Source: a bacterium | GTDB lineage: Bacteria; Patescibacteriota; Minisyncoccia; Phycocordibacterales; UBA918 | Direction of reading: 5' to 3' | DNA: 42,994 nucleotides | NCBI GenBank assembly: GCA_027487145.1 | Contig: JAIYEC010000069.1 | Coordinates: 1 to 42,994, forward strand | In this document: in pieces, positions 18,370 to 41,735 of the stretch | Numbering within the stretch: the stretch's first letter is position 1 | Layout of the letters: every line of letters begins with the position of its first letter | Notes under the pieces: generated by a model | The model's database searches: none | Told to the model about the DNA's origin: nothing | The model's input: the letters and a program-made list of their open reading frames with translations, nothing else | Translations under genes and position numbers: made by a program

Positions 18370-20262
18370 CTAAACGATTCGCTCAGGATTTATTTCTACC
18401 TTCACGTAGGGTGGTAGTTGTCGCACCTGTGACATTGCTTCAGCAAATCGCCCCTTCTCTTCAAGTGGTATGCGCATTAATACATGGCGAAGCGTATGAC
18501 TTTTAGTGGAGTGAGGATTGGTATAAAACTCCGCCAGAGGTGTCGTGAGGATTTGCTTAATCTCGCTTTCTGATTCTTTTACCACTACTTCAGGACCTGA
18601 CCACGAAAGGAGAATAAAGGTACTAAATGGCGGATAGAGAAGTTGCTTACGAAGCAGGATTTCATCATCAAAAAACCGTTCAATCGCTCCTTTGCTCGCA
18701 TACTCGACTAATTGGTCCGGGTCATTTCGGGTTTGAATCAGCACTTCGCGAACGCTACATTCACGCAGCTTCATAATCAGTCTAAAGAGTGATTCGTCTG
18801 CTCGCCAGGTTGGGGTACTTCTCGCTGCATCAAGCGAGATAATGGCACTGACAGCAACGCCTTGGTGGAGGTGTGGTAGTGCTACTTGTGTTCCAATTAA
18901 AATTCCGCCTTTTTTACTAAAGAACTCTCGAACCACTTTTTCAACTTTTTGGGGAGTAGGGGCGGTACTGTGATCAAGGAGGGTTACATCAGTGTGTGGG
19001 AAGAGGTTTTTCCATTCGTCATACACCTGCTGTATTCCAATTCCTCGTTCTTTTAGTCGCCAAGAACCACAGTTATCGCAGGTGTCAGCTGCGCGGACAC
19101 GTTTCCCTGATGTACTTGAAACAAACCAACGCTCTTCAGTATCATTCTTTACCGTCCGGATGAGCGAATACGGTGTATGAGAATCTGGACACCGAAAGAT
19201 ATACCCACAATCAATGCAGGCTACCACCGGGGCTAGGCCGCGTCTCGCGCTGTACAAAAAGACATGACCTTTTGCTTCAAGTGCGGTGGTGACACTCTTG
19301 ATAAGGGCTGGTGAAAACAGTTGGAAGGGAACTTCGCTGCTTGGTTTATCATTTTGCTTAACAACGTGAACAGGCGCAGAAAATACGAGCCGTTTTACCT
19401 CCTCCCCGTATGTAAAATAGGTATCGGCTCGTCGTTTAGCTTCTTCTTCAGTACGAACTACCGTATCACCTAAAATAATGCTTGCTCCTTGAGCTTTGGC
19501 GTACGTGATAAGAGCATCACGGTGGTCTAGATACGGTCGAGTTCGGTCAATGTAGTGTGCGCTCGCTGATTGTTCGACAATGACACTCGTGATGTCTCCG
19601 CGACCGCAGTACGCATACGGAGGGGTGGTGATAATCAGTTTAGAGAATTTTGTATCCTCTAAAGCTTCTGTCATCTGCTGATAGGTTTTTTTACTTGGGG
19701 TAGCGGTGAGGGTGATGATTCTGTCTAGAATACCGTGTCCTAACTCTCGCTTTGCGTACATGACATCTGTGCTTGTTGGTACTACAAATAAGACCGAACC
19801 GCGTTTAGCGAAGGTGCTTCTAATGTGACTTTGATAACTGCGATACCGCTCATCAAGACGAGCCATCAAAATTTGTGGTGTCGTCTCTTCTTGGTGAATA
19901 ACAGCAGTACTGTCTTTATAGGTTCGAAGACCATTTCTAATATCTGAAGGAAGGAGGGTGAAGAGAATTGAGCCGAGTGATGCGGGATATCGCTCACTGA
20001 GTTTTAGGGCGGTATCTCGAATAGCTTGAGGGACAACACCGGTCGCTTCTTGATTTGGAAGTTTTCGTAATGAGAAGGTGGCTGCCTTAAGCGCGGTTTT
20101 GGCGGTGCCGACCGTGGTCACGTTGGTAACTATGGCGTGTTTACTTTTTCCGCGAATCGGAACTTGGAGGAATGTCCCAATCTCATACGAAATACTTGAG
20201 TAGTAGGAGAGTGACTCAAGGTGGGTGCCGCGGATGAGAGGAATCACTTCAATGACGTACAT
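18370..20262 (-). CDS. priA: PriA-like primosomal protein N' with degenerate ATPase motifs
   Basis: The N-terminal MYVIEVIPL...FLQVPIRGK 3'-DNA-binding-like domain, the Cys-rich region CIDCG...CDNCGS and the overall length fit PriA. The positions equivalent to Walker A and DEEH read ARLDERYRSY and VIVEQSASAHY. Confidence 0.7.
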   Translation of the reverse strand: MYVIEVIPLIRGTHLESLSYYSSISYEIGTFLQVPIRGKSKHAIVTNVTTVGTAKTALKAATFSLRKLPNQEATGVVPQAIRDTALKLSERYPASLGSILFTLLPSDIRNGLRTYKDSTAVIHQEETTPQILMARLDERYRSYQSHIRSTFAKRGSVLFVVPTSTDVMYAKRELGHGILDRIITLTATPSKKTYQQMTEALEDTKFSKLIITTPPYAYCGRGDITSVIVEQSASAHYIDRTRPYLDHRDALITYAKAQGASIILGDTVVRTEEEAKRRADTYFTYGEEVKRLVFSAPVHVVKQNDKPSSEVPFQLFSPALIKSVTTALEAKGHVFLYSARRGLAPVVACIDCGYIFRCPDSHTPYSLIRTVKNDTEERWFVSSTSGKRVRAADTCDNCGSWRLKERGIGIQQVYDEWKNLFPHTDVTLLDHSTAPTPQKVEKVVREFFSKKGGILIGTQVALPHLHQGVAVSAIISLDAARSTPTWRADESLFRLIMKLRECSVREVLIQTRNDPDQLVEYASKGAIERFFDDEILLRKQLLYPPFSTFILLSWSGPEVVVKESESEIKQILTTPLAEFYTNPHSTKSHTLRHVLMRIPLEEKGRFAEAMSQVRQLPPYVKVEINPERIV

Positions 20263-20319
20263 GAGGGTAGTATAGCAATAAATAAGAAACTGAGCTTGGG
20301 GAAGAAAAAACTATAATCA

Positions 20320-20353
20320 GCTAAAATGCACCTATTAATAGGTGCATTTTAGC
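20320..20353. repeat. 34-bp perfect palindrome with conserved core ATGCACCTATTAATAGGTGCAT
   Basis: gctaaaatgcacctatt/aataggtgcattttagc. It lies between the murA stop and the priA start, 58-91 nt upstream of priA. Same core as the palindromes at 33528-33567 and 33982-34015. Confidence 0.9.
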
Positions 20354-20392
20354 TTAGAAAATCAGTAGATTGGGCGGACGCTATCAAGGATA

Positions 20393-20433
20393 AGCGGCAC
20401 CAGCCTCAGGCCTTGCCTGGGGCTGGTGCCGCT
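20393..20433 (-). terminator. 18-bp GC-rich hairpin overlapping the murA stop codon
   Basis: agcggcaccagcctcagg-ccttg-cctggggctggtgccgct with one G-U pair and no clear T-run. It shares the GGCACCAGC/GCTGGTGCC stem with the hairpin at 41703-41735. Confidence 0.5.
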
Positions 20434-21931
20434 AAAACTCATCAAGATAGCTAATATTGGCTCCCAGGGTCGTGAGGCGTTCGACGAGCTTCTCATAGCC
20501 ACGATTGATGCTGTAGATATTTCGGAGGATCGAGCGACCTTCGGCACCGAGCATAGCGATAAGAAGAATGGTAGCTGGTCTGAGGGCTGGTGGGCAGACA
20601 AGTTCGTTAGCGCGTAACTTGCTTGGTCCGGTGATGTAGATTCGGTGTGGGTCTGCCAAAACGGTGTCGCCGCCGAGCTTATCAAGCTCAGTAAAGTAAA
20701 TAGCTCGCTTTTCGTACATCCAGTCATGAATGAGGGTTTGACCATGTACCTGGGTTGCGATAACAGCAAAGAACGGCAAGTTATCAGCGTTGATGCCAGG
20801 GTACGGGCGAGAGTGAATTTTTTCAGATACGGCAACGAGTTTTGATGGCTTTGTGGTGATATCAACTAGCTTCACTTGTCCATTCTTGCCAAGGTACGGT
20901 TTGCTCTGCGTATACTTAAAGCCCATTTTCTTAAGGGTAAGGAGCTCAAGTTCAAGAAACTCAATCGGGCAGCGGGTAATGGTAAGGCTCGAATTTGTCA
21001 CAATCGCTGTGGCCAAGAAGAACATTGCGTCAGTCGGGTCTTCTGCCAGATGATACTCAATATCTTTTTTGATTTCTTTTACACCGGTAATGGTGAGGGT
21101 GGTGGTTCCAACACCTTCAATAGTGACACCAAGATGTTGCAGGAATACACACATTTCTTGCACCATGTAGTTAGCCGAGCAGTACTTAATAGTGGTTGTT
21201 CCACTCGATAGGGCAGCTGCCATGAGGGCATTTTCTGTTACCGTATCTCCTGACTCATAGAGAATAATCTCACTCGGTCGCTTGTGCTTCACTGCCACTT
21301 TGTAGGCATCATCAGTTACTTTGATATCAACTCCAAATTCTTCCAGGGCGTAGAAATGAGGGCGGACAGTTCGACTGCCGAGTTTACAACCACCTGATTG
21401 TGGAAGGGCAAACGTACTCATCCGGTGAATCAGTGGTCCGATAAACATCACAATGCTCCGAGTTCGTTTGGCTGCTTCAATATCAATCTTAGTGAGATCA
21501 ATCTTCGCTGGAGGAGTAATTTTCATCATGTTTTTACTCCATTCGATTTTTACGCCGATACTCTCAAGTACCTCAACTAATCGATGTACTTCCTCAATGC
21601 GAGGCATGCCGTAGAGGGTAGTCGTGCCTTTATTTAAGAGAGATGCACATAACAAACCGACGGCTCCATTTTTTGAGGTATTGGTCTGGATGGTACCGGC
21701 TAGTTTTTTACCACCAGTAATTTGCACGTTGACCGTTCCGGGAGAAAGAGTGATGAGGTTTTTACCGAGCGCTTTACCGATACGCTTGAGCATGTCAGCA
21801 CTCACATTTTGTTTACCACTTTCGATGCGAGCAATCGCGCTTTGGGTTGTCTTGAGCTTTTTAGCTAAGTCAGTTTGAGTAAGACCGAGAGTTTCTCGTA
21901 CGTCCGCAATGCGGGTTCCAATATCTTGCAT
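20432..21931 (-). CDS. murA: UDP-N-acetylglucosamine 1-carboxyvinyltransferase with N-terminal XRE-type HTH domain
   Basis: Residues ~1-60 (IADVRETLGLTQTDLAKKLKTTQSAIARIESGKQN) form a classic HTH_XRE. The rest aligns to MurA (VQITGGKKLAGTIQTNTSKNGAVGLLCASLL...; active-site loop SGGCKLGSRTVRPH). Confidence 0.85.
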   Translation of the reverse strand: MQDIGTRIADVRETLGLTQTDLAKKLKTTQSAIARIESGKQNVSADMLKRIGKALGKNLITLSPGTVNVQITGGKKLAGTIQTNTSKNGAVGLLCASLLNKGTTTLYGMPRIEEVHRLVEVLESIGVKIEWSKNMMKITPPAKIDLTKIDIEAAKRTRSIVMFIGPLIHRMSTFALPQSGGCKLGSRTVRPHFYALEEFGVDIKVTDDAYKVAVKHKRPSEIILYESGDTVTENALMAAALSSGTTTIKYCSANYMVQEMCVFLQHLGVTIEGVGTTTLTITGVKEIKKDIEYHLAEDPTDAMFFLATAIVTNSSLTITRCPIEFLELELLTLKKMGFKYTQSKPYLGKNGQVKLVDITTKPSKLVAVSEKIHSRPYPGINADNLPFFAVIATQVHGQTLIHDWMYEKRAIYFTELDKLGGDTVLADPHRIYITGPSKLRANELVCPPALRPATILLIAMLGAEGRSILRNIYSINRGYEKLVERLTTLGANISYLDEF

Positions 21932-22011
21932 ATGGGATGAGTATAGCAGATATGCTATGTCGTATGGATTTACCCCTGGGTATAGTATTTTGTGATACTA
22001 TACTGCCACGT

Positions 22012-23025
22012 ATGTTTGCGTCTTTAACGCCCAAAATTGGTATCGATCTTGGTACCACCAGTATCCTGGTGTTTGTTCCCGGCCAGGGGATTGTTCTTAA
22101 TGAACCGTCAGTGGTAGCTATTTCTGAGAATAACGAAGTATTGGCGGTTGGGAGTGAAGCCAAGGCTATGATTGGCCGAACGCCTGATAGTATCCGAGCC
22201 TACCGGCCTATGCGCGATGGTGTTATCGCTGACTATAAAGTGACCGAAGCCATGTTGCGCTACTTCCTGAAGAAATCAATGAGTAAGTACAGTCTCTTTC
22301 GTCCGGATGTAATGGTTTCAGTACCAGCGGGCGTTACTTCAACTGAGCGTCGAGCAGTGGTGGAAGCTGCCATGCGAGCTGGAGCAAAAAATGCCTTTGT
22401 CGTAAAAGAACCAATTCTGGCAGCGATTGGCGCAGGAGTACCTATTTATGAACCACAAGGACACATGATTGTAGATATGGGAGGCGGTACTATCGACGTT
22501 GCTGTAATTTCTCTCGGTGGCATTGTGGCGGCCAACTCCGTAAAGTGTGCCGGTAACCGAATCGACACGGCCATTATCGATTACGTCAAAAAGACTCGTA
22601 ATCTTGCGATTGGAGAAAAAACGGCTGAAGATATTAAAATTGGCGTTGGTTCAGCCTTACCACTTGAAGAAGAACTTACGATGGAAATCAAGGGTCGTGA
22701 TATGTTGTCAGGCTTGCCTCGCACGACCGAGATTAAGAGTAATGAAGTTGTTCGTGCTACACAGAAAGAATTGAAAGAGATGATTAAAGCCATTAGAGAT
22801 GTGTTTCAAGAGACACCACCTGAGCTCGCCGCAGATATTATTGATGGAGGAATTATTCTTACGGGCGGTACCTCACAGCTTCGTAATTTCCCAGAACTCA
22901 TTAGGCGTCGAACTGGCGTGAAGGCCCGGGTCGCAGACCAGGCCCTGTTTTGTGTGGCGAAAGGGACGGGGACAGCGCTTGAACATCTTGATGTCTACAA
23001 GCGCGCCGTACTCGCGAAGCGGTAA
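22012..23025 (+). CDS. mreB: MreB/Mbl-family actin-like protein (paralogue 1)
   Basis: IGIDLGTTSILVFV..GIVLNEPSVVA...GRTP...RPMRDGVIADY... The start is moved to the ATG at 22012 (MFASLTPK...), which has TATACT 7 nt upstream. Confidence 0.85.
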   Translation: MFASLTPKIGIDLGTTSILVFVPGQGIVLNEPSVVAISENNEVLAVGSEAKAMIGRTPDSIRAYRPMRDGVIADYKVTEAMLRYFLKKSMSKYSLFRPDVMVSVPAGVTSTERRAVVEAAMRAGAKNAFVVKEPILAAIGAGVPIYEPQGHMIVDMGGGTIDVAVISLGGIVAANSVKCAGNRIDTAIIDYVKKTRNLAIGEKTAEDIKIGVGSALPLEEELTMEIKGRDMLSGLPRTTEIKSNEVVRATQKELKEMIKAIRDVFQETPPELAADIIDGGIILTGGTSQLRNFPELIRRRTGVKARVADQALFCVAKGTGTALEHLDVYKRAVLAKR

Positions 23026-23026
23026 C

Positions 23027-23146
23027 GCGTTTTAATAAGTACTCATCTACTTCGTTACTTTCACAAAAAATATTTTCAATGTACAAAAAAGTACACCTCA
23101 AATATTTTTTGCTCAGCGCCTCGTATCTAAGCACTTATTAAAACGC
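23027..23146 (+). repeat. post-stop structured repeat, copy A
   Basis: Closing stem gcgttttaataagt (23027-23040) / acttattaaaacgc (23133-23146). P2 is caaaaaatattt / aaatattttttg. P1 is tgtac-aaaaaa-gtaca (23080-23095). Conserved boxes acttcgtta and gctcagcgcctcgtatct. Confidence 0.85.
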
Positions 23147-28804: not shown

Positions 28805-29018
28805 AACGCCTTCAAAATCCTCCAATACTTCGTTGCTTTCACAAAAGTTTCTTTCACTGTACACCAAGTACACCTCAAGAAACTTTCTTTCCTTCTTACA
28901 GAAGCTGTCTACTCATTGGATATTTTCTTGCTTCGCTTTAAAATATCTCAATGAGTCTTGCGCTATGGGGCCTATCCCATAGCTCACGCCTTGTCTTGAA
29001 GCATTTTGAAGCGTTCTA
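28802..29018 (+). repeat. post-stop structured repeat, copy B (long form)
   Basis: Closing stem tagaacgc-c-ttcaaaat (28802-28818) / attttgaagcgttcta (29003-29018). P2 is aaagtttctt (28844-28853) / aagaaacttt (28877-28886). P1 is tgtac-accaa-gtaca (28858-28872). Carries an inserted module at 28892-28996 with two hairpins. Confidence 0.9.
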
Positions 29019-31350: not shown

Positions 31351-31357
31351 ATCACCC

Positions 31358-31448
31358 CATCTGCGTCGTTGTGTTCATTAAAAATTCTTTCAATGTACAG
31401 TAAGTACACCTCACAAAATTTTCTGCTCGCGACGCGCATCTCCGATAC
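31358..31448 (+). repeat. post-stop structured repeat, copy C
   Basis: ctgcgtcgttgtgttc...tcaa-tgtac-agtaa-gtaca-cctc (P1 at 31394-31408)...ctgctcgcgacgcgcatct. It begins 8 nt after the rseP stop. Confidence 0.8.
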
Positions 31449-31487
31449 TAAGTTAAGTCTTTTAGCTTAGTATAAATACCAACTCCT

Positions 31488-32259: not shown

Positions 32260-33510
32260 ATGCGACAATCACACTTATTTACAAAGACTCGAAAGGAGGC
32301 ACCAGCTGACGAAGTGGCCAAGAACGCTCAGTTACTTATTAGGGCTGGATACGTACACAAGGTAATGGCTGGGGTGTATGCCTACACACCACTGGGGCTT
32401 CGTGTACTTGAGAACATCAAGCAGATTGTGCGTGAAGAAATGAATGCTGTTGGCGGGCAAGAACTCATCATGACAAGTCTTCAGCCTAAAGATGTCTGGG
32501 AGGAGACAGGTCGCTGGAGCGATGAGACTGTTGATGTGTGGTTTAAGACAAAACTACAGGATGACACTGAGCTTGGGTTGGCATGGTCACATGAAGAGGC
32601 GATTGTCTCAATGATGGCACAGTATGTACACAGCTACAAAGATTTGCCAATTAGTGTCTACCAATTCCAAACGAAACTTCGCAATGAGCTTCGAGCCAAA
32701 AGCGGAATTATGCGTGGTCGTGAGTTTGTGATGAAAGATATGTACTCTTTGCACGCTACCAAGGAAGATATGGACGAGTATTACGATAAGGTTGTAGAAG
32801 CCTACAAGCGAATCTACGAGCGGTTAGGTGTCGGCGCAGATACATTCGTTACCTTCGCTTCCGGTGGTGCCTTCACAAAGTTTAGTCATGAATTCCAAAC
32901 ACTTTGTGATGCTGGAGAAGATGTGCTTTACATAGACAAAGACAAGACAGTAGCAGTAAATGAGGAAGTACTCGACGACGCAATAGCAGAGATCGGTATT
33001 TCAAAAGACGAGCTATCGCCAACGAAGACTGCTGAAGTAGGAAACATCTTTAAGTTCGGTACTGAGAAAGGTGAACAAATGAATGTAACCTTTAAAGATG
33101 CAGACGGTATGGATAAACCAATCTACCTCGCTTCTTACGGTGTCGGTATTACTCGCGTGATGGGTGTATTGGTGGAGAAGTTTGGTGATGATAAGGGTCT
33201 GGTGTGGCCTGAGGCAGTGGCAGCATACAAAGTGCATTTGGTTGGACTCAATCTAGAAGATGCGGAAATAAAAGATTGGGCGGACGGCGTCTATACGAAC
33301 CTAACCAAAGCCGGAGTTGAGGTGCTCTATGATGATCGAATTGAAGCTCGAGCTGGGGAGAAGTTCTCTGATAGCGATCTCCTTGGTGTGCCATATCGAG
33401 TGGTTGTTAGTAAAAAAGGAAAAGAAAACGGTCAATTTGAAGTCGTAACACGTGCTACGGGTGAAGTGCGACAACTTACCGAAGAGGAACTCTTTACTGA
33501 TTTTTCTTAG
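32260..33510 (+). CDS. proS: prolyl-tRNA synthetase, bacterial-type N-terminus but lacking the INS editing domain
   Basis: MRQSHLFTKTRKEAPADEVAKNAQLLIRAGYV...GVYAYTPLG and class II motif 2 FRNELRAKSGIMRGREFVMKDMYS. At 416 aa it is well short of the roughly 570 aa typical of INS-containing enzymes. Confidence 0.85.
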   Translation: MRQSHLFTKTRKEAPADEVAKNAQLLIRAGYVHKVMAGVYAYTPLGLRVLENIKQIVREEMNAVGGQELIMTSLQPKDVWEETGRWSDETVDVWFKTKLQDDTELGLAWSHEEAIVSMMAQYVHSYKDLPISVYQFQTKLRNELRAKSGIMRGREFVMKDMYSLHATKEDMDEYYDKVVEAYKRIYERLGVGADTFVTFASGGAFTKFSHEFQTLCDAGEDVLYIDKDKTVAVNEEVLDDAIAEIGISKDELSPTKTAEVGNIFKFGTEKGEQMNVTFKDADGMDKPIYLASYGVGITRVMGVLVEKFGDDKGLVWPEAVAAYKVHLVGLNLEDAEIKDWADGVYTNLTKAGVEVLYDDRIEARAGEKFSDSDLLGVPYRVVVSKKGKENGQFEVVTRATGEVRQLTEEELFTDFS

Positions 33511-33527: not shown

Positions 33528-33567
33528 CCTACAAATATACACCTATTAATAGGTGTATATTTGTAGG
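33528..33567. repeat. 40-bp perfect palindrome with conserved core ATACACCTATTAATAGGTGTAT
   Basis: cctacaaatatacacctatt/aataggtgtatatttgtagg. It lies 18 nt after the proS stop, and its right arm overlaps the -35 region of the TrpR-like gene. Confidence 0.9.
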
Positions 33568-33588
33568 CGGTCAGTTTATACTTTATTT

Positions 33589-33987
33589 ATGACAAGGATT
33601 TCTAAAAATGCAGTCGAGGATAGTGAAGATTATAAGTTTGCATATAAGCAACTATCTAGGTTTCTTGCTGGTCTGCAGGATAAGAACGCACATTTCTTTA
33701 TCGACGAGCTTCTTAGTGAGTCAGAACAAGTGATGTTAGTGAAGCGATTTACAGCCATCTACCTCTTTCAAGAAGGACATAATCCATATAGGGTCAGCCA
33801 GATGATCGGTGTTAGTGAATCCACTGCCCAGAGATTGCATCATGGTTACAGAGAGGGGATCTATAACAATTTACTCAAGTGCATTAAAAAATCGGAAAAA
33901 GCTGAATTTTTAACAGTACTTCAAGACTTTCTTTTGTCGAAAGCGGATGCCAAAGCGAGAACAAGACTTCTTAAAAAAGCTCTCTAA
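33589..33987 (+). CDS. TrpR-like / YerC-YecD family HTH protein
   Basis: LLSESEQVMLVKRFTAIYLFQEGHNPYRVSQMIGVSESTAQRL fits the LLTP.E...L..R......L..G.S...I....GVS..TI.R pattern. Start set to the ATG at 33589 (TATACT at 33577-33582, 6 nt upstream); the track start 33553 is GTG inside the palindrome. Confidence 0.6.
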   Translation: MTRISKNAVEDSEDYKFAYKQLSRFLAGLQDKNAHFFIDELLSESEQVMLVKRFTAIYLFQEGHNPYRVSQMIGVSESTAQRLHHGYREGIYNNLLKCIKKSEKAEFLTVLQDFLLSKADAKARTRLLKKAL

Positions 33988-34015
33988 ATACACCTATTAA
34001 TAGGTGTATTTAGAG
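33982..34015. repeat. 34-bp perfect palindrome with conserved core ATACACCTATTAATAGGTGTAT
   Basis: ctctaaatacacctatt/aataggtgtatttagag. It contains the TAA stop of the TrpR-like gene and lies just upstream of the mreB promoter. Confidence 0.9.
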
Positions 34016-34031
34016 GTGTCTGGAATAAATT

Positions 34032-34060
34032 TTGCTACCAAGCTGTGAGCATAGTACAAT
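34032..34060 (+). promoter_or_regulatory. promoter of the mreBCD-mrdA operon (leaderless configuration)
   Basis: TTGCTA (34032-34037), 17 nt spacer, TACAAT (34055-34060), then 8 nt to the ATG at 34069. No Shine-Dalgarno sequence. Confidence 0.6.
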
Positions 34061-34068
34061 ACCTTTAA

Positions 34069-35142
34069 ATGAACGTTTTTACGCGACAATGGAGCGGGCT
34101 GCTTTCAGCGGTCTCAACTGACATGGCGATTGACCTGGGAACGGCCAATACCTTGGTGTATGTAAAAGGAAAAGGGATTGTGCTCAATGAGCCAACGATT
34201 GTTGCAATAAATAAGAAAACTGGACAGCTGGTGGCAGTCGGAAACGATGCTAAAGTAATGCTGGGGCGCACTCCGGCTCATATTGAAGTAGTGCGACCGC
34301 TGGTTGATGGAGTAATTTCTGATTTTGAGGTGACCGAAGAAATGTTGGCATACCTTATTGGTAAGGTCCGAAGTGAAATGAAAACACTGGTGGCACCTCG
34401 GGTGCTGATTGGTGTGCCATCAGGTATTACAAACGTAGAAATGCGAGCAGCACACGACGCTGCTAAAAACGCCGGCGCACGTGATGTTTTCTTGATTGAA
34501 GAACCAATGGCCGCTGCTATTGGTGCCAAGCTGCCGATTGGAAAATCAGTTGGAAGTATGATTGTTGATATTGGTGGTGGTACAACTGATATCGCTATCA
34601 TTTCACTCAATGGTCTCGTTGTTTCAAAGAATCTTCGGATTGCCGGCGACCATCTTAATGCGTCAATTGTTTCTTACATCAAAGATCAGTTCAAAGTACA
34701 CGTTGGAGAGAAAACCGCTGAAGATGCCAAAATAGCGCTTACGGCAATCACAAACACGCAGACAGGAGGCAAGGATTTGGTTGTTCGAGGTCGTGATGTG
34801 GTAACAGGCTTACCTCGCGAAGTAGTTATCACTGATAGTGATGTCAGGGATGCGGTAGCGGGCCATATTGATACGATTGTAGAAAATGTACGCGCCGCCC
34901 TTGAGGTGACTCCGCCTGAGGTTTTGGCAGATATTATGCAGCGAGGAATCCACCTTTCAGGCGGAGGAGCACTTATTCCGGGTCTGGCGTCGCTGCTTGA
35001 ACATGCCCTTGCGGTGCCAGTAATTGTTGTCCCTGATCCACTTCGAGCTGTTATCCGAGGTGCTGGAATTGTGGTTGAAGATCTCGATGTATACAGCGAA
35101 ATTCTCTTAGATCATGAAGCTTCATTCCAGACACACTTCTAA
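34069..35142 (+). CDS. mreB: rod-shape protein MreB (paralogue 2, canonical operon copy)
   Basis: MAIDLGTANTLVYVKGKGIVLNEPTIVAI...GRTP...VRPLVDGVISDF...DIGGGTTDIA; followed by mreC. Confidence 0.9.
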   Translation: MNVFTRQWSGLLSAVSTDMAIDLGTANTLVYVKGKGIVLNEPTIVAINKKTGQLVAVGNDAKVMLGRTPAHIEVVRPLVDGVISDFEVTEEMLAYLIGKVRSEMKTLVAPRVLIGVPSGITNVEMRAAHDAAKNAGARDVFLIEEPMAAAIGAKLPIGKSVGSMIVDIGGGTTDIAIISLNGLVVSKNLRIAGDHLNASIVSYIKDQFKVHVGEKTAEDAKIALTAITNTQTGGKDLVVRGRDVVTGLPREVVITDSDVRDAVAGHIDTIVENVRAALEVTPPEVLADIMQRGIHLSGGGALIPGLASLLEHALAVPVIVVPDPLRAVIRGAGIVVEDLDVYSEILLDHEASFQTHF

Positions 35143-36043
35143 AAAAAGCAAGCGGACACAACAGATTGTTCGTGTAGTGGTTATTTCAGTGGCATTGGTA
35201 TGTTTTGGTTTAGTAGTTCCTAGGCTTTTTTCTCTTGCCGGGAAGATAGTTATGGCACCAGTGCACTCAGTGCATACGTGGATCCAGACCTCTGATTCAA
35301 GACTTCCACAGTATTTTCGTGACAGATCTGAGTTGATTAATCGGATTGCTGAGCTAGAGCAAGCGGTGGCAATTGCGTCTGGGACAGACTTAACGCAACA
35401 GAGATTGTACGAGGAAAATCAGTGGCTTCGTCAGCTGCTTGGTGTACAAAATGATAGTCGAGTGGCAGCCGCAGTGATTGCAAGACCAGGACAATTACCA
35501 TATGACTATCTGCAGATTGATCGTGGGACGATTGACGGTATTCAAGCTGGTGCACCAGTGTATGTCGGAAAAGACAACGTGATTGGGGTAGTTACCAGCA
35601 CGACGGAACGGTATTCATTTGTTGAGTTATTTACTACGCCTGGATTTTCTACCACTGCATTTATTAGTGGCGCAAATGTTATGGCGACGATTGATGGTCA
35701 CGGAGGAGGGATTGCTCGAGTTCGAGTACCACAAGGAGTACCATTACAGGTGGGGGATTTGGTTCACTTGCCAAGTCTTGATCCTGGGGTATTTGGTCGG
35801 GTAGCGTACCTTGAAAATGAACCATCTCAACCAGAACAGTTTGGATACATCGCCCTCTCGCAGCCAGTTTCAAGTTTGCACTATGTATCGGTAGGGAAAG
35901 AAGTGATTCATCCAAGCGAACCGCCGGTGATTGAAGAAAGAGTGCGGGCTGTTATTACCCAAGCGATGAACATCAATACGGCTCAGTTAAATCTCGCTAG
36001 CACTACTATCATTTCGACTTCAACTGCGACAACAACGCCATGA
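35114..36043 (+). CDS. mreC: rod-shape protein MreC
   Basis: N-terminal TM, a coiled-coil (IAELEQAVA...EENQWLRQLL), then the beta-barrel motif GAPVYVGKDNVIGVVTS. Position after mreB. Confidence 0.75.
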   Translation: MKLHSRHTSKKSKRTQQIVRVVVISVALVCFGLVVPRLFSLAGKIVMAPVHSVHTWIQTSDSRLPQYFRDRSELINRIAELEQAVAIASGTDLTQQRLYEENQWLRQLLGVQNDSRVAAAVIARPGQLPYDYLQIDRGTIDGIQAGAPVYVGKDNVIGVVTSTTERYSFVELFTTPGFSTTAFISGANVMATIDGHGGGIARVRVPQGVPLQVGDLVHLPSLDPGVFGRVAYLENEPSQPEQFGYIALSQPVSSLHYVSVGKEVIHPSEPPVIEERVRAVITQAMNINTAQLNLASTTIISTSTATTTP

Positions 36044-36297
36044 TTTTTATTTTATATCTCATTCTTTATATTTTTATCGCAATCTTGATAGTCCAGAATC
36101 AACTTTTGTTGGCATTTCTTGCAGTGTTGTTGTTTACCTACTATCGGAGCGCTGTTTGGTTGATACCACTCGGTTTCTTTATTGATGGATATTTTGATGC
36201 CTTCTTTTCTGTACCGGTGTTTTCGCTTGCTGCAATTTCTTGGTATGTTGCTTCAGAATTCTTTAAGCCACGATTGCGTGGGTATGTCTCACAATAA
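36040..36297 (+). CDS. mreD: small polytopic membrane protein in the mreD position
   Basis: 85 aa with about 3 hydrophobic helices. It overlaps the mreC stop (ATGA) and precedes mrdA. The assignment is positional only, and the protein is shorter than typical MreD. Confidence 0.35.
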   Translation: MIFILYLILYIFIAILIVQNQLLLAFLAVLLFTYYRSAVWLIPLGFFIDGYFDAFFSVPVFSLAAISWYVASEFFKPRLRGYVSQ

Positions 36298-36299
36298 GT

Positions 36300-38018
36300 A
36301 TGGGAAGACTACGTGATAGATATACTAAGATGGTTGATGTTGAGGAGGTACTTCTTGACGCCTCTAATATTCCTGATTTTAATCAGGGTCGGTTAGAGGG
36401 AAAAAGAGAGTTACCAATCAAAAAACAAAGTGTCCGGACGGTGGGCCTCCTATTCTCTTTAATTGCCTGTGTGTTCTTATATCAGGTCTTTACCCTCCAG
36501 ATTGTCCGCGGTGATGAATTTAAAGAGATAGCTGAACGTAATCGGGTGAATGAGGTACTCATCATTGCCGAGCGGGGAGTGGTGTACGACCGTAACGGAG
36601 AGATGGTGGCCTGGAACGAAGCTGATGAGACAGGTGAGTACGATTTTCCGATCCGGGCGTATACAGACAGATTGGGATTAGGTCAGGTGCTGGGGTACGT
36701 AAGTTATCCCAAAAAAGATGCCCGCGGCTATTTTTTCCGTACCGATTACTTGGGAAGAAGTGGGGTGGAATTAGCTTTTGATAATAAGCTCAAAGGGACT
36801 AATGGTAGTAAAGTTATTGAAGTCGATGCTCTTAGTCAGACAGTTAGTGAATCAGAAATTAACCTGCCACAAAGTGGGGAAGCCTTACATCTTTCAATTG
36901 ATGCAGAGTTATCCGAAGCAATGTATCAGATTATTGCCTCATCAAGTGAGAAGGCCGGGTTTAGAAGTGGCGCGGCTGCCATCATGGATGTGAAGACAGG
37001 AGAATTGTTAGCACTTACTAGCTTCCCATCGTACGATCCTGAGATTATGGCCGATGGTGATGATATTGCGACAATCAACTCATACAACCAAGACGACAGA
37101 TTACCGTTTCTTAATAAAATTATCGGGGGAGCATATACGCCTGGCTCAATTGTAAAACCGTTTGTAGCGTACGCAGCATTGGAAGAAGGCATTATCAGTC
37201 CACAAAAGACAATTATTAGTAACGGGTATCTTCTTGTTCCTAACCCGTACAATCCATCAAATCCCTCTCGCTTTAATGACTGGAAGGCACATGGGGTTAT
37301 GACGATGCGTGAAGCAATTGCGTACTCATCAAACGTCTACTTCTACATCATCGGTGGCGGGTACGGTGATCAGCCCGGGCTTGGTATCACCAAGATGGCT
37401 GCGAACTATCGACGGTTTGGGTTAGGTGAACCAACCGGCATAAATTTAGCGCAAGAACAAGCTGGGATTGTTCCAGACCCGGCTTGGAAGCAAGCAACCT
37501 TTAATGATGATTGGCGACTTGGAGACACGTACTTTACTGCTATTGGGCAATTTGGATTCCTTACTACACCGGTTCAGATGTTACGAGCCTACGCAGCACT
37601 TGCAAATGGCGGAACACTCCTTACCCCACACGTTGAGAAAGGTGTTGAGGTAGAAGGAAAAGACATTGGTCTTAATCCAAATCATCTCCAGGTCATTCAT
37701 GAGGGTATGCGTAAGACTGTTATCGCAAATGGTGGGACTGCTCGTGGTTTGGAGAGGAAAGATGTCGCTTTTGCTTCAAAATCTGGTACAGCTGAAGTGG
37801 GAGCTGGCAATGCGTACGTTAACTCTTGGTCGGCTGGTTTTTGGCCCTACGAAGAGCCTCGATTTGCGTATATCTTGATGATGGATCATGCACCTCGAAG
37901 TAACGCTTTGGGAGCCGGACGAATTATGGGGGATATTGTACAGTGGATGAGCGTGCATCGTCCTGAATATCTTAAGGCTGAGTCAGAATTATCTACAGTA
38001 GAGGACGAAGGCGAGTAA
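36300..38018 (+). CDS. mrdA: penicillin-binding protein 2 (class B transpeptidase)
   Basis: N-terminal TM, SxxK (GSIVKPF), SxN (YSSNVYF) and KSG (SKSGTAE) motifs; mreBCD context. Confidence 0.9.
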   Translation: MGRLRDRYTKMVDVEEVLLDASNIPDFNQGRLEGKRELPIKKQSVRTVGLLFSLIACVFLYQVFTLQIVRGDEFKEIAERNRVNEVLIIAERGVVYDRNGEMVAWNEADETGEYDFPIRAYTDRLGLGQVLGYVSYPKKDARGYFFRTDYLGRSGVELAFDNKLKGTNGSKVIEVDALSQTVSESEINLPQSGEALHLSIDAELSEAMYQIIASSSEKAGFRSGAAAIMDVKTGELLALTSFPSYDPEIMADGDDIATINSYNQDDRLPFLNKIIGGAYTPGSIVKPFVAYAALEEGIISPQKTIISNGYLLVPNPYNPSNPSRFNDWKAHGVMTMREAIAYSSNVYFYIIGGGYGDQPGLGITKMAANYRRFGLGEPTGINLAQEQAGIVPDPAWKQATFNDDWRLGDTYFTAIGQFGFLTTPVQMLRAYAALANGGTLLTPHVEKGVEVEGKDIGLNPNHLQVIHEGMRKTVIANGGTARGLERKDVAFASKSGTAEVGAGNAYVNSWSAGFWPYEEPRFAYILMMDHAPRSNALGAGRIMGDIVQWMSVHRPEYLKAESELSTVEDEGE

Positions 38019-38670: not shown

Positions 38671-38795
38671 GAGAAACTACCACAGCCCTAAATCTGCTTC
38701 GTTGTTTCGCCAGAAATTTCGTTCAATGTACAGGCGTACACCTCACAAAATTTTTTAGCTTACGCCTCGCATCTTCAGCACTGTGCTAGTTTTCT
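38671..38795 (+). repeat. post-stop structured repeat, copy D
   Basis: ctgcttcgttgtttc...tcaa-tgtac-aggc-gtaca-cctc (P1 at 38727-38740)...agcttacgcctcgcatct. A loose outer stem is gagaaacta / tagttttct. It lies between the greA stop and the terminator at 38798. Confidence 0.8.
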
Positions 38796-41618: not shown

Positions 41619-41663
41619 AACCGCCCGCCCGACTTTTCAAATTGAAAAGTCGGGCGGGCGGTT
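41619..41663. terminator. very strong bidirectional hairpin
   Basis: aaccgcccgcccgacttttcaa / ttgaaaagtcgggcgggcggtt, an almost perfect 22-nt inverted repeat. Confidence 0.75.
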
Positions 41664-41671
41664 TCTCTATT

Positions 41672-41702
41672 AAATCTCCCTGGGGTTCCCCTAGGGAGAT
41701 TT
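41672..41702. terminator. second hairpin of a triple-hairpin cluster
   Basis: aaatctccctgggg-ttc-ccctagggagattt with one bulge. Confidence 0.5.
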
Positions 41703-41735
41703 ACAAGTGGCACCAGCGAAGCTGGTGCCACTTGT
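41703..41735. terminator. third hairpin of the cluster (GGCACCAGC stem)
   Basis: acaagtggcaccagc-gaa-gctggtgccacttgt, a perfect 15-bp stem. Confidence 0.55.

Follow-up and report, generated by a model that had tools for sequence, protein, structure and literature searches.

Palindromes flanking a TrpR/YerC-like gene as candidate operators of the encoded protein

Palindromes and genes of the locus

We analysed a stretch of bacterial DNA of 42,994 nucleotides (contig JAIYEC010000069.1 of assembly GCA_027487145.1, forward strand), below called the window. It belongs to the genome of an uncultivated member of Patescibacteria, of the Parcubacteria/Paceibacteria type. The window contains a gene encoding a TrpR/YerC-like protein of 132 amino acids (aa) with a helix-turn-helix (HTH) motif. 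The gene is bracketed by two palindromes, P1 upstream and P2 downstream, and a third palindrome with the same core, P3, lies upstream of the priA gene (Table 1). The palindromes are probably the cognate operators of the enclosed protein, forming together with its gene a conserved operator-gene-operator cassette; this reading rests on the comparison of sequences described below.

P1, P2 and P3 are the sole perfect palindromes with zero spacer and arms of at least 12 nt in the window. They have a common 22-mer core AT(A/G)CACCTATTAATAGGTG(T/C)AT, in which P3 differs from P1 and P2 by a single A>G / T>C change mirrored across the arms. With up to three mismatches allowed, the window still has exactly three occurrences of the 16-mer CACCTATTAATAGGTG. 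Its mean count in dinucleotide-preserving shuffles is 0.14, and none of 100 shuffles reached three. The outer arms of the three copies are mutually different, each still being self-complementary. P2 and P3 are also alike outside the core, where they read CTAAAT and CTAAAAT, respectively, and where the indel has its mirror image in the opposite arm. The centres of P1 and P2 are 451 bp apart. An initial annotation of the window had described P1 (40 bp) and P2 (34 bp) as perfect palindromes bracketing the gene, as well as the 22-bp core shared by three copies with differing self-complementary outer arms, and all of this was recovered. The third palindrome is present and perfect, but it is slightly longer than the 34 bp at 20320-20353 given there (Table 1).

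P1 begins 18 nt past the stop codon of proS, and its dyad centre lies 41.5 bp before the ATG of the HTH gene. The right arm of P1 covers the -35/spacer region of the HTH gene promoter, an overlap already proposed in the initial annotation. The putative start of transcription is placed by the TATACT box. At the other end, the TAA stop codon of the HTH gene (33985-33987) falls inside the left arm of P2. The centre of P2 is about 70 bp upstream of the ATG and transcription start of mreB, outside the core promoter, and mreB is probably not controlled by P2 occlusion. The mreB promoter is kept as TTGCTC-17-TACAAT in the related loci L001 and L004; L001 shares synteny with the window both at the HTH locus and at the downstream mreB genes.

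A link to HisR through a neighbouring histidyl-tRNA ligase was discarded, the upstream synthetase being ProS. A search of the whole window against Rfam at gathering thresholds gave tRNA-Asn as the sole match and no RNA family at the palindromes. Consensus promoter and terminator scans of the window at large performed no better than scans of shuffled sequences.

Leaderless-type promoters, in which the -10 hexamer is followed by 6-8 nt and the ATG, are seen at 33577-33591 (HTH gene), 34055-34071 (mreB) and, on the minus strand, 20260-20277 (priA). This arrangement implies candidate leaderless mRNAs lacking a Shine-Dalgarno box for all three genes. The window also encodes two MreB/Mbl paralogs 11 kb apart, one adjoining murA (21937-23025) and the other heading mreCD-PBP2 (34069-35142).

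Table 1. Palindromes, genes and promoters of the locus, and cores shared by the two flanking palindromes in lineages of the family
Feature	Position	Strand	Description
P1, upstream palindrome	33528-33567	.	40 bp, perfect; arms 20+20, zero spacer; shared 22-bp core 33537-33558; dyad centre 33547.5
P2, downstream palindrome	33982-34015	.	34 bp, perfect; zero spacer; core 33988-34009; dyad centre 33998.5
P3, third palindrome	20319-20354	.	36 bp, perfect; zero spacer; core ATGCACCTATTAATAGGTGCAT at 20326-20347
TrpR/YerC-like HTH gene	33589-33987	+	132 aa; predicted binder of the palindromes
Putative -10 box of the HTH gene	33577-33582	+	TATACT, then 6 nt and ATG; leaderless-type; read from sequence
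proS	32260-33510	+	short proline-tRNA ligase; co-directional upstream neighbour
mreB promoter	34032-34060	+	TTGCTA-17-TACAAT; 8 nt before the mreB ATG at 34069
mreB-mreC-(85-aa mreD-like)-PBP2 (mrdA)	34069-38018	+	co-directional downstream neighbours
priA extended -10 box	20269-20277	-	TGCTATACT, then 6 nt and ATG at 20262
Shared core, window and L004			CACCTATTAATAGGTG
Shared core, L001			CACCTGTTAAAAGGTG
Shared core, L045 and L054			TACCTGTTAACAGGTA
Shared core, L047			TACCTGTATACAGGTA
Shared core, L005			TAATGTTAACATTA
Shared core, L048			(A/G)TACGAT(C/T)AATCGTAT
Shared core, L050			TTATCATATATGATAA

Conservation of the flanking palindromes

The DNA around the HTH gene was compared in nine lineages of the family, with 27-67% identity to the window protein. 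The gene, denoted X, is found in five neighbourhoods: proS-X-mreB, dprA-like gene-X, dnaE-X-thrS, recJ-X-rnhA, and thrS-lactamase-X, where the label "dprA-like" is a reading of the C-terminal residues of that neighbour and not the result of a family search. Among homologs of 60-67% identity, the proS-X-mreB order is stable.

In all nine lineages a palindrome stands on either side of the HTH gene; the two have a common core, which varies among lineages (Table 1). The contig of L005 ends inside the downstream copy, of which the left arm and centre are seen. In the eight lineages other than L005, the longest stretch that the upstream and downstream flanks share exactly measures 18-30 nt in seven cases and 10 nt in L048, whose two 16-nt cores differ at two positions. 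For comparison, the longest exact match does not exceed 9 nt in 98% of control flank pairs (n=1045).

The core follows the recognition helix of the protein. The helix S-E-S-T-A-Q-R pairs with the half-site (A)CACCT, the helix S-[L/I]-S-T-x-Q-R with (C)TACCT, and the helices PTTAR, DTTNR and ATVAR with unrelated cores. Such covariation is the pattern expected of cognate protein-operator pairs, and not of unconstrained terminator stems. The central proposal of the initial annotation, that the enclosed HTH protein would bind the palindromes, is thus supported by the co-occurrence of the gene and the palindromes in relatives, which had been suggested there as a check and holds in every lineage compared; the lineage-specific cores that track the recognition helix; and the TrpR-like fold of the protein, described in the next section.

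The TrpR-like protein

By profile and by fold, the predicted product of the HTH gene is an all-helical protein of the TrpR/YerC type, in agreement with its initial assignment. The Pfam domain HTH_23 is found with the E-value 1.8e-8. The Trp_repressor domain (PF01371) scores 18.9 bits (E-value 1.6e-3) against the gathering cutoff of 27; a match to it at E-value 0.01 or below is seen in five of nine examined members, the best being 1.5e-8. A precomputed PF01371 hit exists for most family members in databases, some of which are labelled "uncharacterized protein YerC" by JGI. No match was found in the NCBIfam search of the 132-aa protein. Comparison of the family profile (56 sequences) with PDB yielded 3frw (1.3e-7), 3kor (1.9e-7) and 3g1c (2.1e-7), matched over approximately 90 residues including the HTH motif. 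An exhaustive profile search retrieved 921 cluster representatives at E < 1e-3; with the stricter threshold of E < 1e-10 there were 258.

The AlphaFold model has eight helices and a mean confidence score (predicted local distance difference test, pLDDT) of 92.1. In the Foldseek comparison of this model with PDB, the top 26 matches are all TrpR-like proteins or E. coli TrpR itself, 1tro and 1trr among them; their probabilities are 0.75-1.0 (0.96-1.0 for the top 12) and the target-normalised TM scores about 0.56-0.69, with E-values of merely 0.05-1. Compared to TrpR/YerC proteins of about 100 aa, the protein has two extra C-terminal helices and a conserved N-terminus MTNISK. According to Pfam and the fold comparison, it lacks nuclease, transposase, recombinase or other catalytic domains.

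Residues K52, R53 and T79 are invariant in the family, and R82 is invariant just in the smaller alignments A1 and A3. The residues T44, R54, T81 and R84 of TrpR, which form the co-repressor pocket, may match T43, R53, T79 and R82 of the family, a correspondence that is a lead only.

Position of the flanking sites and the candidate mechanism

The dyad centre of the upstream site lies 13.5-52.5 bp from the ATG in all lineages, beside or over a -10-like box. A -10 box followed by exactly 6 nt and ATG is present in the window, in L054 (TATACT-TAAACA-ATG) and in L047 (TACTAT-TTAACT-ATG), and in these three cases the upstream site is over the -35/spacer region. The upstream copy of L045 is situated between the TATAAT box and the ATG, and that of L005 overlaps the sole plausible -10 box and abuts the ATG. 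As read from the sequences, these positions fit promoter occlusion, that is, candidate negative autoregulation.

Counted from where the HTH stop codon ends, the downstream site begins at -8 to +12 nt in six of eight measured lineages; the remaining two have it at +42 and at +80 nt. In L005 the truncated downstream copy, as judged by eye, also begins at the stop codon. On the other side, the distance to the next gene is 28-310 nt, and the gene itself varies (mreB, thrS, rnhA, other). Since the downstream site is anchored to the HTH stop codon, and the distance to the next gene and the identity of this gene vary, it belongs to the regulator gene and not to mreB. The initial annotation was right in placing P2 before the TTGCTA-17-TACAAT promoter, but P2 does not look like an mreB operator, being tied to the HTH stop at a variable distance from the next promoter.

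The centres of the two flanking sites are 419-519 bp apart. Helical phasing of the pair was considered and rejected, as these spacings give scattered fractional turns with no common phase. A strict activator geometry of the downstream sites was also rejected, as the distances vary among lineages.

We propose the following mechanism. Firstly, the protein would bind the dyad core of about 20 bp as a symmetric dimer, similarly to proteins of the TrpR family, each recognition helix reading one half-site (xCACCTATT in the genome of the window). The dyad cores, of 16-30 bp and co-varying with the recognition helix, agree with an intertwined homodimer on a palindromic operator of about 18-20 bp. Secondly, the upstream operator would cover the gene's own leaderless-type promoter (at the -35/spacer region, the -10 box or the start, depending on the lineage), and the protein would repress its own transcription. 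Finally, the second operator, at 420-520 bp from the first one, would be as near the 3' end of the gene as is possible for a non-coding site. Most likely, it strengthens autoregulation by cooperative binding or looping, or blocks transcription out of or into the gene, or both.

One alternative is that the protein controls mreBCD-mrdA and priA-def-fmt from P2 and P3, which would then be activator (or upstream repressor) sites of a cell-wall and replication regulon. Both dyad centres are situated about 70-75 bp upstream of leaderless-type starts, and the distance from the dyad centre to the -35 box in the proS-X-mreB lineages is 33.5, 33.5 and 37.5 bp. However, the anchoring of the downstream copy to the HTH stop and the changing identity of the next gene speak against this explanation. 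So do the offsets of approximately -70.5 and -74.5, which fall on different faces of the helix, and the relatives in which the promoter of priA is retained but the palindrome upstream of it is absent. We give this regulon very little credence.

Hairpin potential of the palindromes

In each window copy self-complementarity continues for 6-9 bp past the shared core with a copy-specific sequence, and relatives have perfect palindromes of up to 36-48 bp. The RNA hairpins of the window are predicted to be strong, from -20 to -29 kcal/mol with z-scores of about -6 to -7 (about -25 kcal/mol and z = -7 for P1). The sites of L048 are of 14-18 bp with -2 to -6 kcal/mol, and their core is still common to both copies. 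Folding energies of -6 kcal/mol or weaker are seen for three of 18 family sites, namely both L048 sites and the upstream site of L045. At least five T in the first eight nucleotides after the stem follow two of the 18 sites. Thus the family sites do not look like canonical intrinsic terminators, defined as a stable stem-loop with an immediate U-tract.

Since self-complementarity extends past the core at many sites, the transcribed palindromes probably act also as bidirectional hairpin insulators or terminators in packed co-directional gene arrays. We treat hairpin formation as a frequent secondary property and the conserved sequence core as the primary feature. The extension of the arms could reflect the role of an insulator or terminator. 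It could also reflect quasi-palindrome extension by template-switch mutation, a process known from established work.

The initial annotation had offered a hairpin element as an alternative to operators. The copy-specific extension of the arms favours hairpins as a second role; as the sole explanation they fare worse. In its strict form this alternative states that the palindromes are RNA hairpins only, serving as non-canonical bidirectional terminators or stabilisers of mRNA ends and kept alike by gene conversion or duplication, and that the protein does not bind them. It would account for the strong predicted hairpins with copy-specific complementary outer arms, for the fact that every copy follows the 3' end of a gene in the direction of transcription, and for the asymmetric centre that is the same in both copies of L001 (CACCTGTT/AAAAGGTG). 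P2 and P3 also scored as terminator-like on the minus strand, in a scan that window-wide was no better than shuffles.

A further argument for hairpins comes from three Saccharibacteria metagenome-assembled genomes, each carrying one identical 18-mer ACACCTATTAATAGGTGT as a solitary hairpin (L010 1808-1825, L035 4540-4557, L042 6656-6673). In L010 and L035 it is framed by A- and T-tracts and follows a gene 3' end, resembling a terminator; in L042 it has an A-tract only and lies between genes. Three matches in small-genome Saccharibacteria exceed chance, which suggests that the recurrence of the stem-loop in this phylum has a separate cause.

On the other hand, the remaining hairpins of the window have unrelated stems, and the copies are identical only over a symmetric core of about 18-30 bp, the sequence of which tracks the recognition helix across nine lineages. 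The upstream copies of L048 and L045 are too weak for terminators, with the core kept, and the U-tract is rare. Moreover, an efficient terminator in the upstream position of L045 or L005 would abort the gene's own mRNA, and murA is already ended by a separate GC-rich hairpin before P3. All in all, it is unlikely that the palindromes are hairpins only. If they were, the finding would shrink to an odd case of concerted terminator evolution.

The third palindrome and the number of copies

P3 lies 57-92 nt upstream of the priA ATG on the minus strand, its centre being 74.5 bp upstream; the upstream placement had been noted initially, with a distance of 58-91 nt. priA is followed by def and fmt. 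On the other side, P3 is 78 nt downstream of the stop codon of HTH_3-murA, past the separate GC-rich hairpin (20393-20433).

Among the PriA homologs with 59-86% identity are those of Candidatus Pacebacteria, Nomurabacteria and Kaiserbacteria. The extended -10 box is kept in relatives as TTGCTATACT (L053), TTGCTATAAT (L052) and TTGCTACAAT (L046), following the pattern TTGCTAnAMT-N6-ATG. The murA-priA spacers of relatives hold other palindromes or an extra small open reading frame (ORF). A different perfect palindrome ATTATCAAGGTGnCACCTTGATAAT is found in L046 (3656-3680) and L053 (approximately 1257-1281), both with PriA 86% identical, and a long GC-rich inverted repeat stands in this spacer of L052. 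The murA-priA spacer is a hot spot, its palindromic elements changing between relatives.

P3 itself was sought upstream of priA in L046, L052 and L053, whose PriA proteins are 83-86% identical, and was absent. Therefore it is a recent, lineage-specific addition. P3 may be an extra target of the protein or may insulate murA and priA from each other, and the favoured mechanism has room for both; it may also be a copied element.

The MurA protein (UDP-GlcNAc 1-carboxyvinyltransferase; 20432-21931, minus strand) has an N-terminal Xre-type HTH_3 domain at residues 8-59. The fusion is kept in L046 and L052. A DNA-binding domain on a cell-wall enzyme is unusual.

Outside the window the core is rare. 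A scan of GTDB species genomes for RCACCTATTAATAGGTGY gave 38 single hits, about 35 being estimated by chance; no genome had more than one match and none of the matching genomes was of the Paceibacteria type. In JGI metagenomes the exact 22-mer had no matches, and the relaxed 22-mer matched at the two flanks of the L002 gene only. In loci of 15-20 kb no further copy of the lineage's own core was found at up to three mismatches. Thus an abundant dispersed repeat is not supported by the GTDB scan, the JGI scans and the loci, and the genome-wide abundance that the initial annotation had named as an argument against operators is not observed in these data.

A low-copy palindromic element could still spread by copying, with the HTH protein serving as its recognition factor, or the palindromes could be recombination sites of a portable cassette. 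The model for the former would be REP elements (repetitive extragenic palindromes) and RAYT (REP-associated tyrosine transposase). RAYT is an HUH/Y1 transposase, and REPs are present in tens to hundreds of copies and flank the single-copy RAYT gene. The architecture is indeed the same in that a single-copy gene is flanked by its own palindromes, which co-vary with the encoded protein in nine of nine lineages. The presence of the cassette in five different neighbourhoods, the likeness of P2 and P3 beyond the core, and the position of P3 in a fast-changing spot that holds other palindromes in relatives also agree with copying. However, the protein here has a 132-aa all-helical TrpR-like fold with neither an HUH/Y1 domain nor any other nuclease, transposase or recombinase domain, there are two or three copies and not tens to hundreds, and the proS-X-mreB synteny is stable. 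We consider an element of this kind very unlikely.

Several observations weigh against the preferred reading of the palindromes as operators of the enclosed protein. The copy-specific self-complementary outer arms are not explained by a protein that reads sequence. The 18-mer copies of Saccharibacteria have no family gene within 8 kb. The shared asymmetric centre of L001 points to copying or gene conversion between the copies, in which case the two copies are not fully independent witnesses. Dimerisation of the protein is inferred by analogy, from family membership only. Finally, P3 is missing upstream of priA in close relatives, and the distance of about 70-75 bp from P2 and P3 to the respective starts of mreB and priA puts both palindromes upstream of the core promoters and outside them.

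A broader interpretation may be put forward tentatively, as a possibility to which we would assign less than even chances. It describes a portable, self-insulated autoregulatory cassette typical of Patescibacteria (an assignment to be read with the reservation that few family members carry a taxon name). Each palindrome would be both a DNA site and a transcribed bidirectional hairpin barrier, and in genomes that leave hardly any room between genes the expression of the gene would be shielded from transcription next to it. The cassettes would have orthogonal specificities with a readable recognition code; in a candidate example from the alignments, half-site position 8 is C where residue 77 is E, and T where it is L or I.

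Regulation of transcription in Patescibacteria (Candidate Phyla Radiation, CPR) is almost entirely uncharted. What is new here is the reading of a TrpR-family protein as an autoregulator with a conserved layout of two flanking operators. If it is true, the cognate site is written twice beside every gene of the family, and each metagenomic contig yields a protein-operator pair. These pairs would form a natural data set on the recognition code of the TrpR fold, from which small orthogonal repressors with their operators could be drawn. The operator-gene-operator layout also poses a testable question, namely, how compact genomes insulate an autoregulated gene from read-through.

Comparison with known systems

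No paper was found in which a regulator and its operator are described for this TrpR-like family. The closest parallel, TrpR of E. coli, is a small all-helical HTH protein whose palindromic operator of about 20 bp overlies its own promoter, resulting in negative autoregulation. The candidate system is similar in the TrpR fold and in the palindrome of about 20 bp over the gene's own promoter, and the trp operator, like most cores observed here, is centred on TTAA. In contrast to TrpR, the protein has 132 aa with the two additional C-terminal helices, the MTNISK N-terminus and a Trp_repressor score below the cutoff. A second identical operator is present at the gene 3' end, and no trp genes are involved.

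Looping between a main and an auxiliary operator is known for lac, where O1 and O2 are 401 bp apart, and for OL and OR of phage lambda. Here, too, two similar operators are separated by a few hundred base pairs (419-519 bp), one at the promoter and the other downstream. However, helical phasing is not conserved, and the second site is by the regulator's own stop codon; looping and tetramerisation would be hypothetical here.

In the HrcA-CIRCE system (controlling inverted repeat of chaperone expression), a perfect inverted repeat in the leaders of heat-shock operons is both a DNA operator and a transcribed RNA element. The palindromes described here are likewise perfect inverted repeats with possible roles in DNA binding and in RNA structure, but the protein belongs to a different family, and CIRCE does not bracket the gene of the regulator.

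HisR/YerC of Firmicutes belongs to the TrpR family and was assigned, by comparative genomics, 20-bp palindromes with lineage-specific consensus sequences, located upstream of histidine biosynthesis and transport genes (PMC9413887). The similarity to the present case is in the TrpR-family protein, the YerC label given by JGI to some members, and the lineage-specific palindromic motifs. The differences are that the constant sites here are the flanks of the regulator gene itself, that the length is 132 aa versus about 100 aa, and that NCBIfam gives no match. No his genes were found in the window and the examined loci, and the protein does not fall into the HisR/YerC orthologous group.

Other elements in the window and related loci

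Among sequencing runs, no RNA run contained the window. Freshwater-metagenome Logan contigs that are 100% identical to the window are tiny and of low depth, and two of them (X2 and X3) begin at 33533, inside P1. P1 may interrupt short-read assembly, which is a possible reason why the exact HTH protein lacks other records.

For thrS, which lies downstream of the HTH cassette, the promoter reads TTGACT-16-TACGAT and the leader is about 250 nt long (L054 10480-10745; L047 4975-5237). In L054 this leader, which may be an attenuator or T-box-like, holds a further perfect palindrome centred on TTAA, ACAACCTTTCGGTTAACCGAAAGGTTGT, together with a GC-rich hairpin that resembles a terminator.

A reverse transcriptase gene (RVT_1) beside a bAvd-like gene is found in L047 (12222-13509), approximately 8 kb from the HTH cassette. 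Such a pair is the hallmark of diversity-generating retroelements.

An intergenic repeat of about 95 nt occurs four times on the plus strand of the window (23040-23140, 28818-28918, 31354-31454, 38687-38787) and once in L001 (5015-5115). The mean column identity is 77%. The repeat contains the inner motif TTTCAATGTAC-N5-6-GTACACCTCA, its ends are CATCTGCTTCGTTG and CGCCTCGCATCT, and the A/T-rich arms are variable yet complementary. It is always situated between co-directional genes and has no match in Rfam. A promoter/operator module is one possible identity, a structured RNA or a small mobile element another.

Finally, three consecutive inverted repeats, two of them GC-rich, are clustered at 41619-41735 of the window, within and just downstream of an 88-aa ORF on the minus strand. 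The cluster includes the perfect 22-nt arms AACCGCCCGCCCGACTTTTCAA and TTGAAAAGTCGGGCGGGCGGTT.

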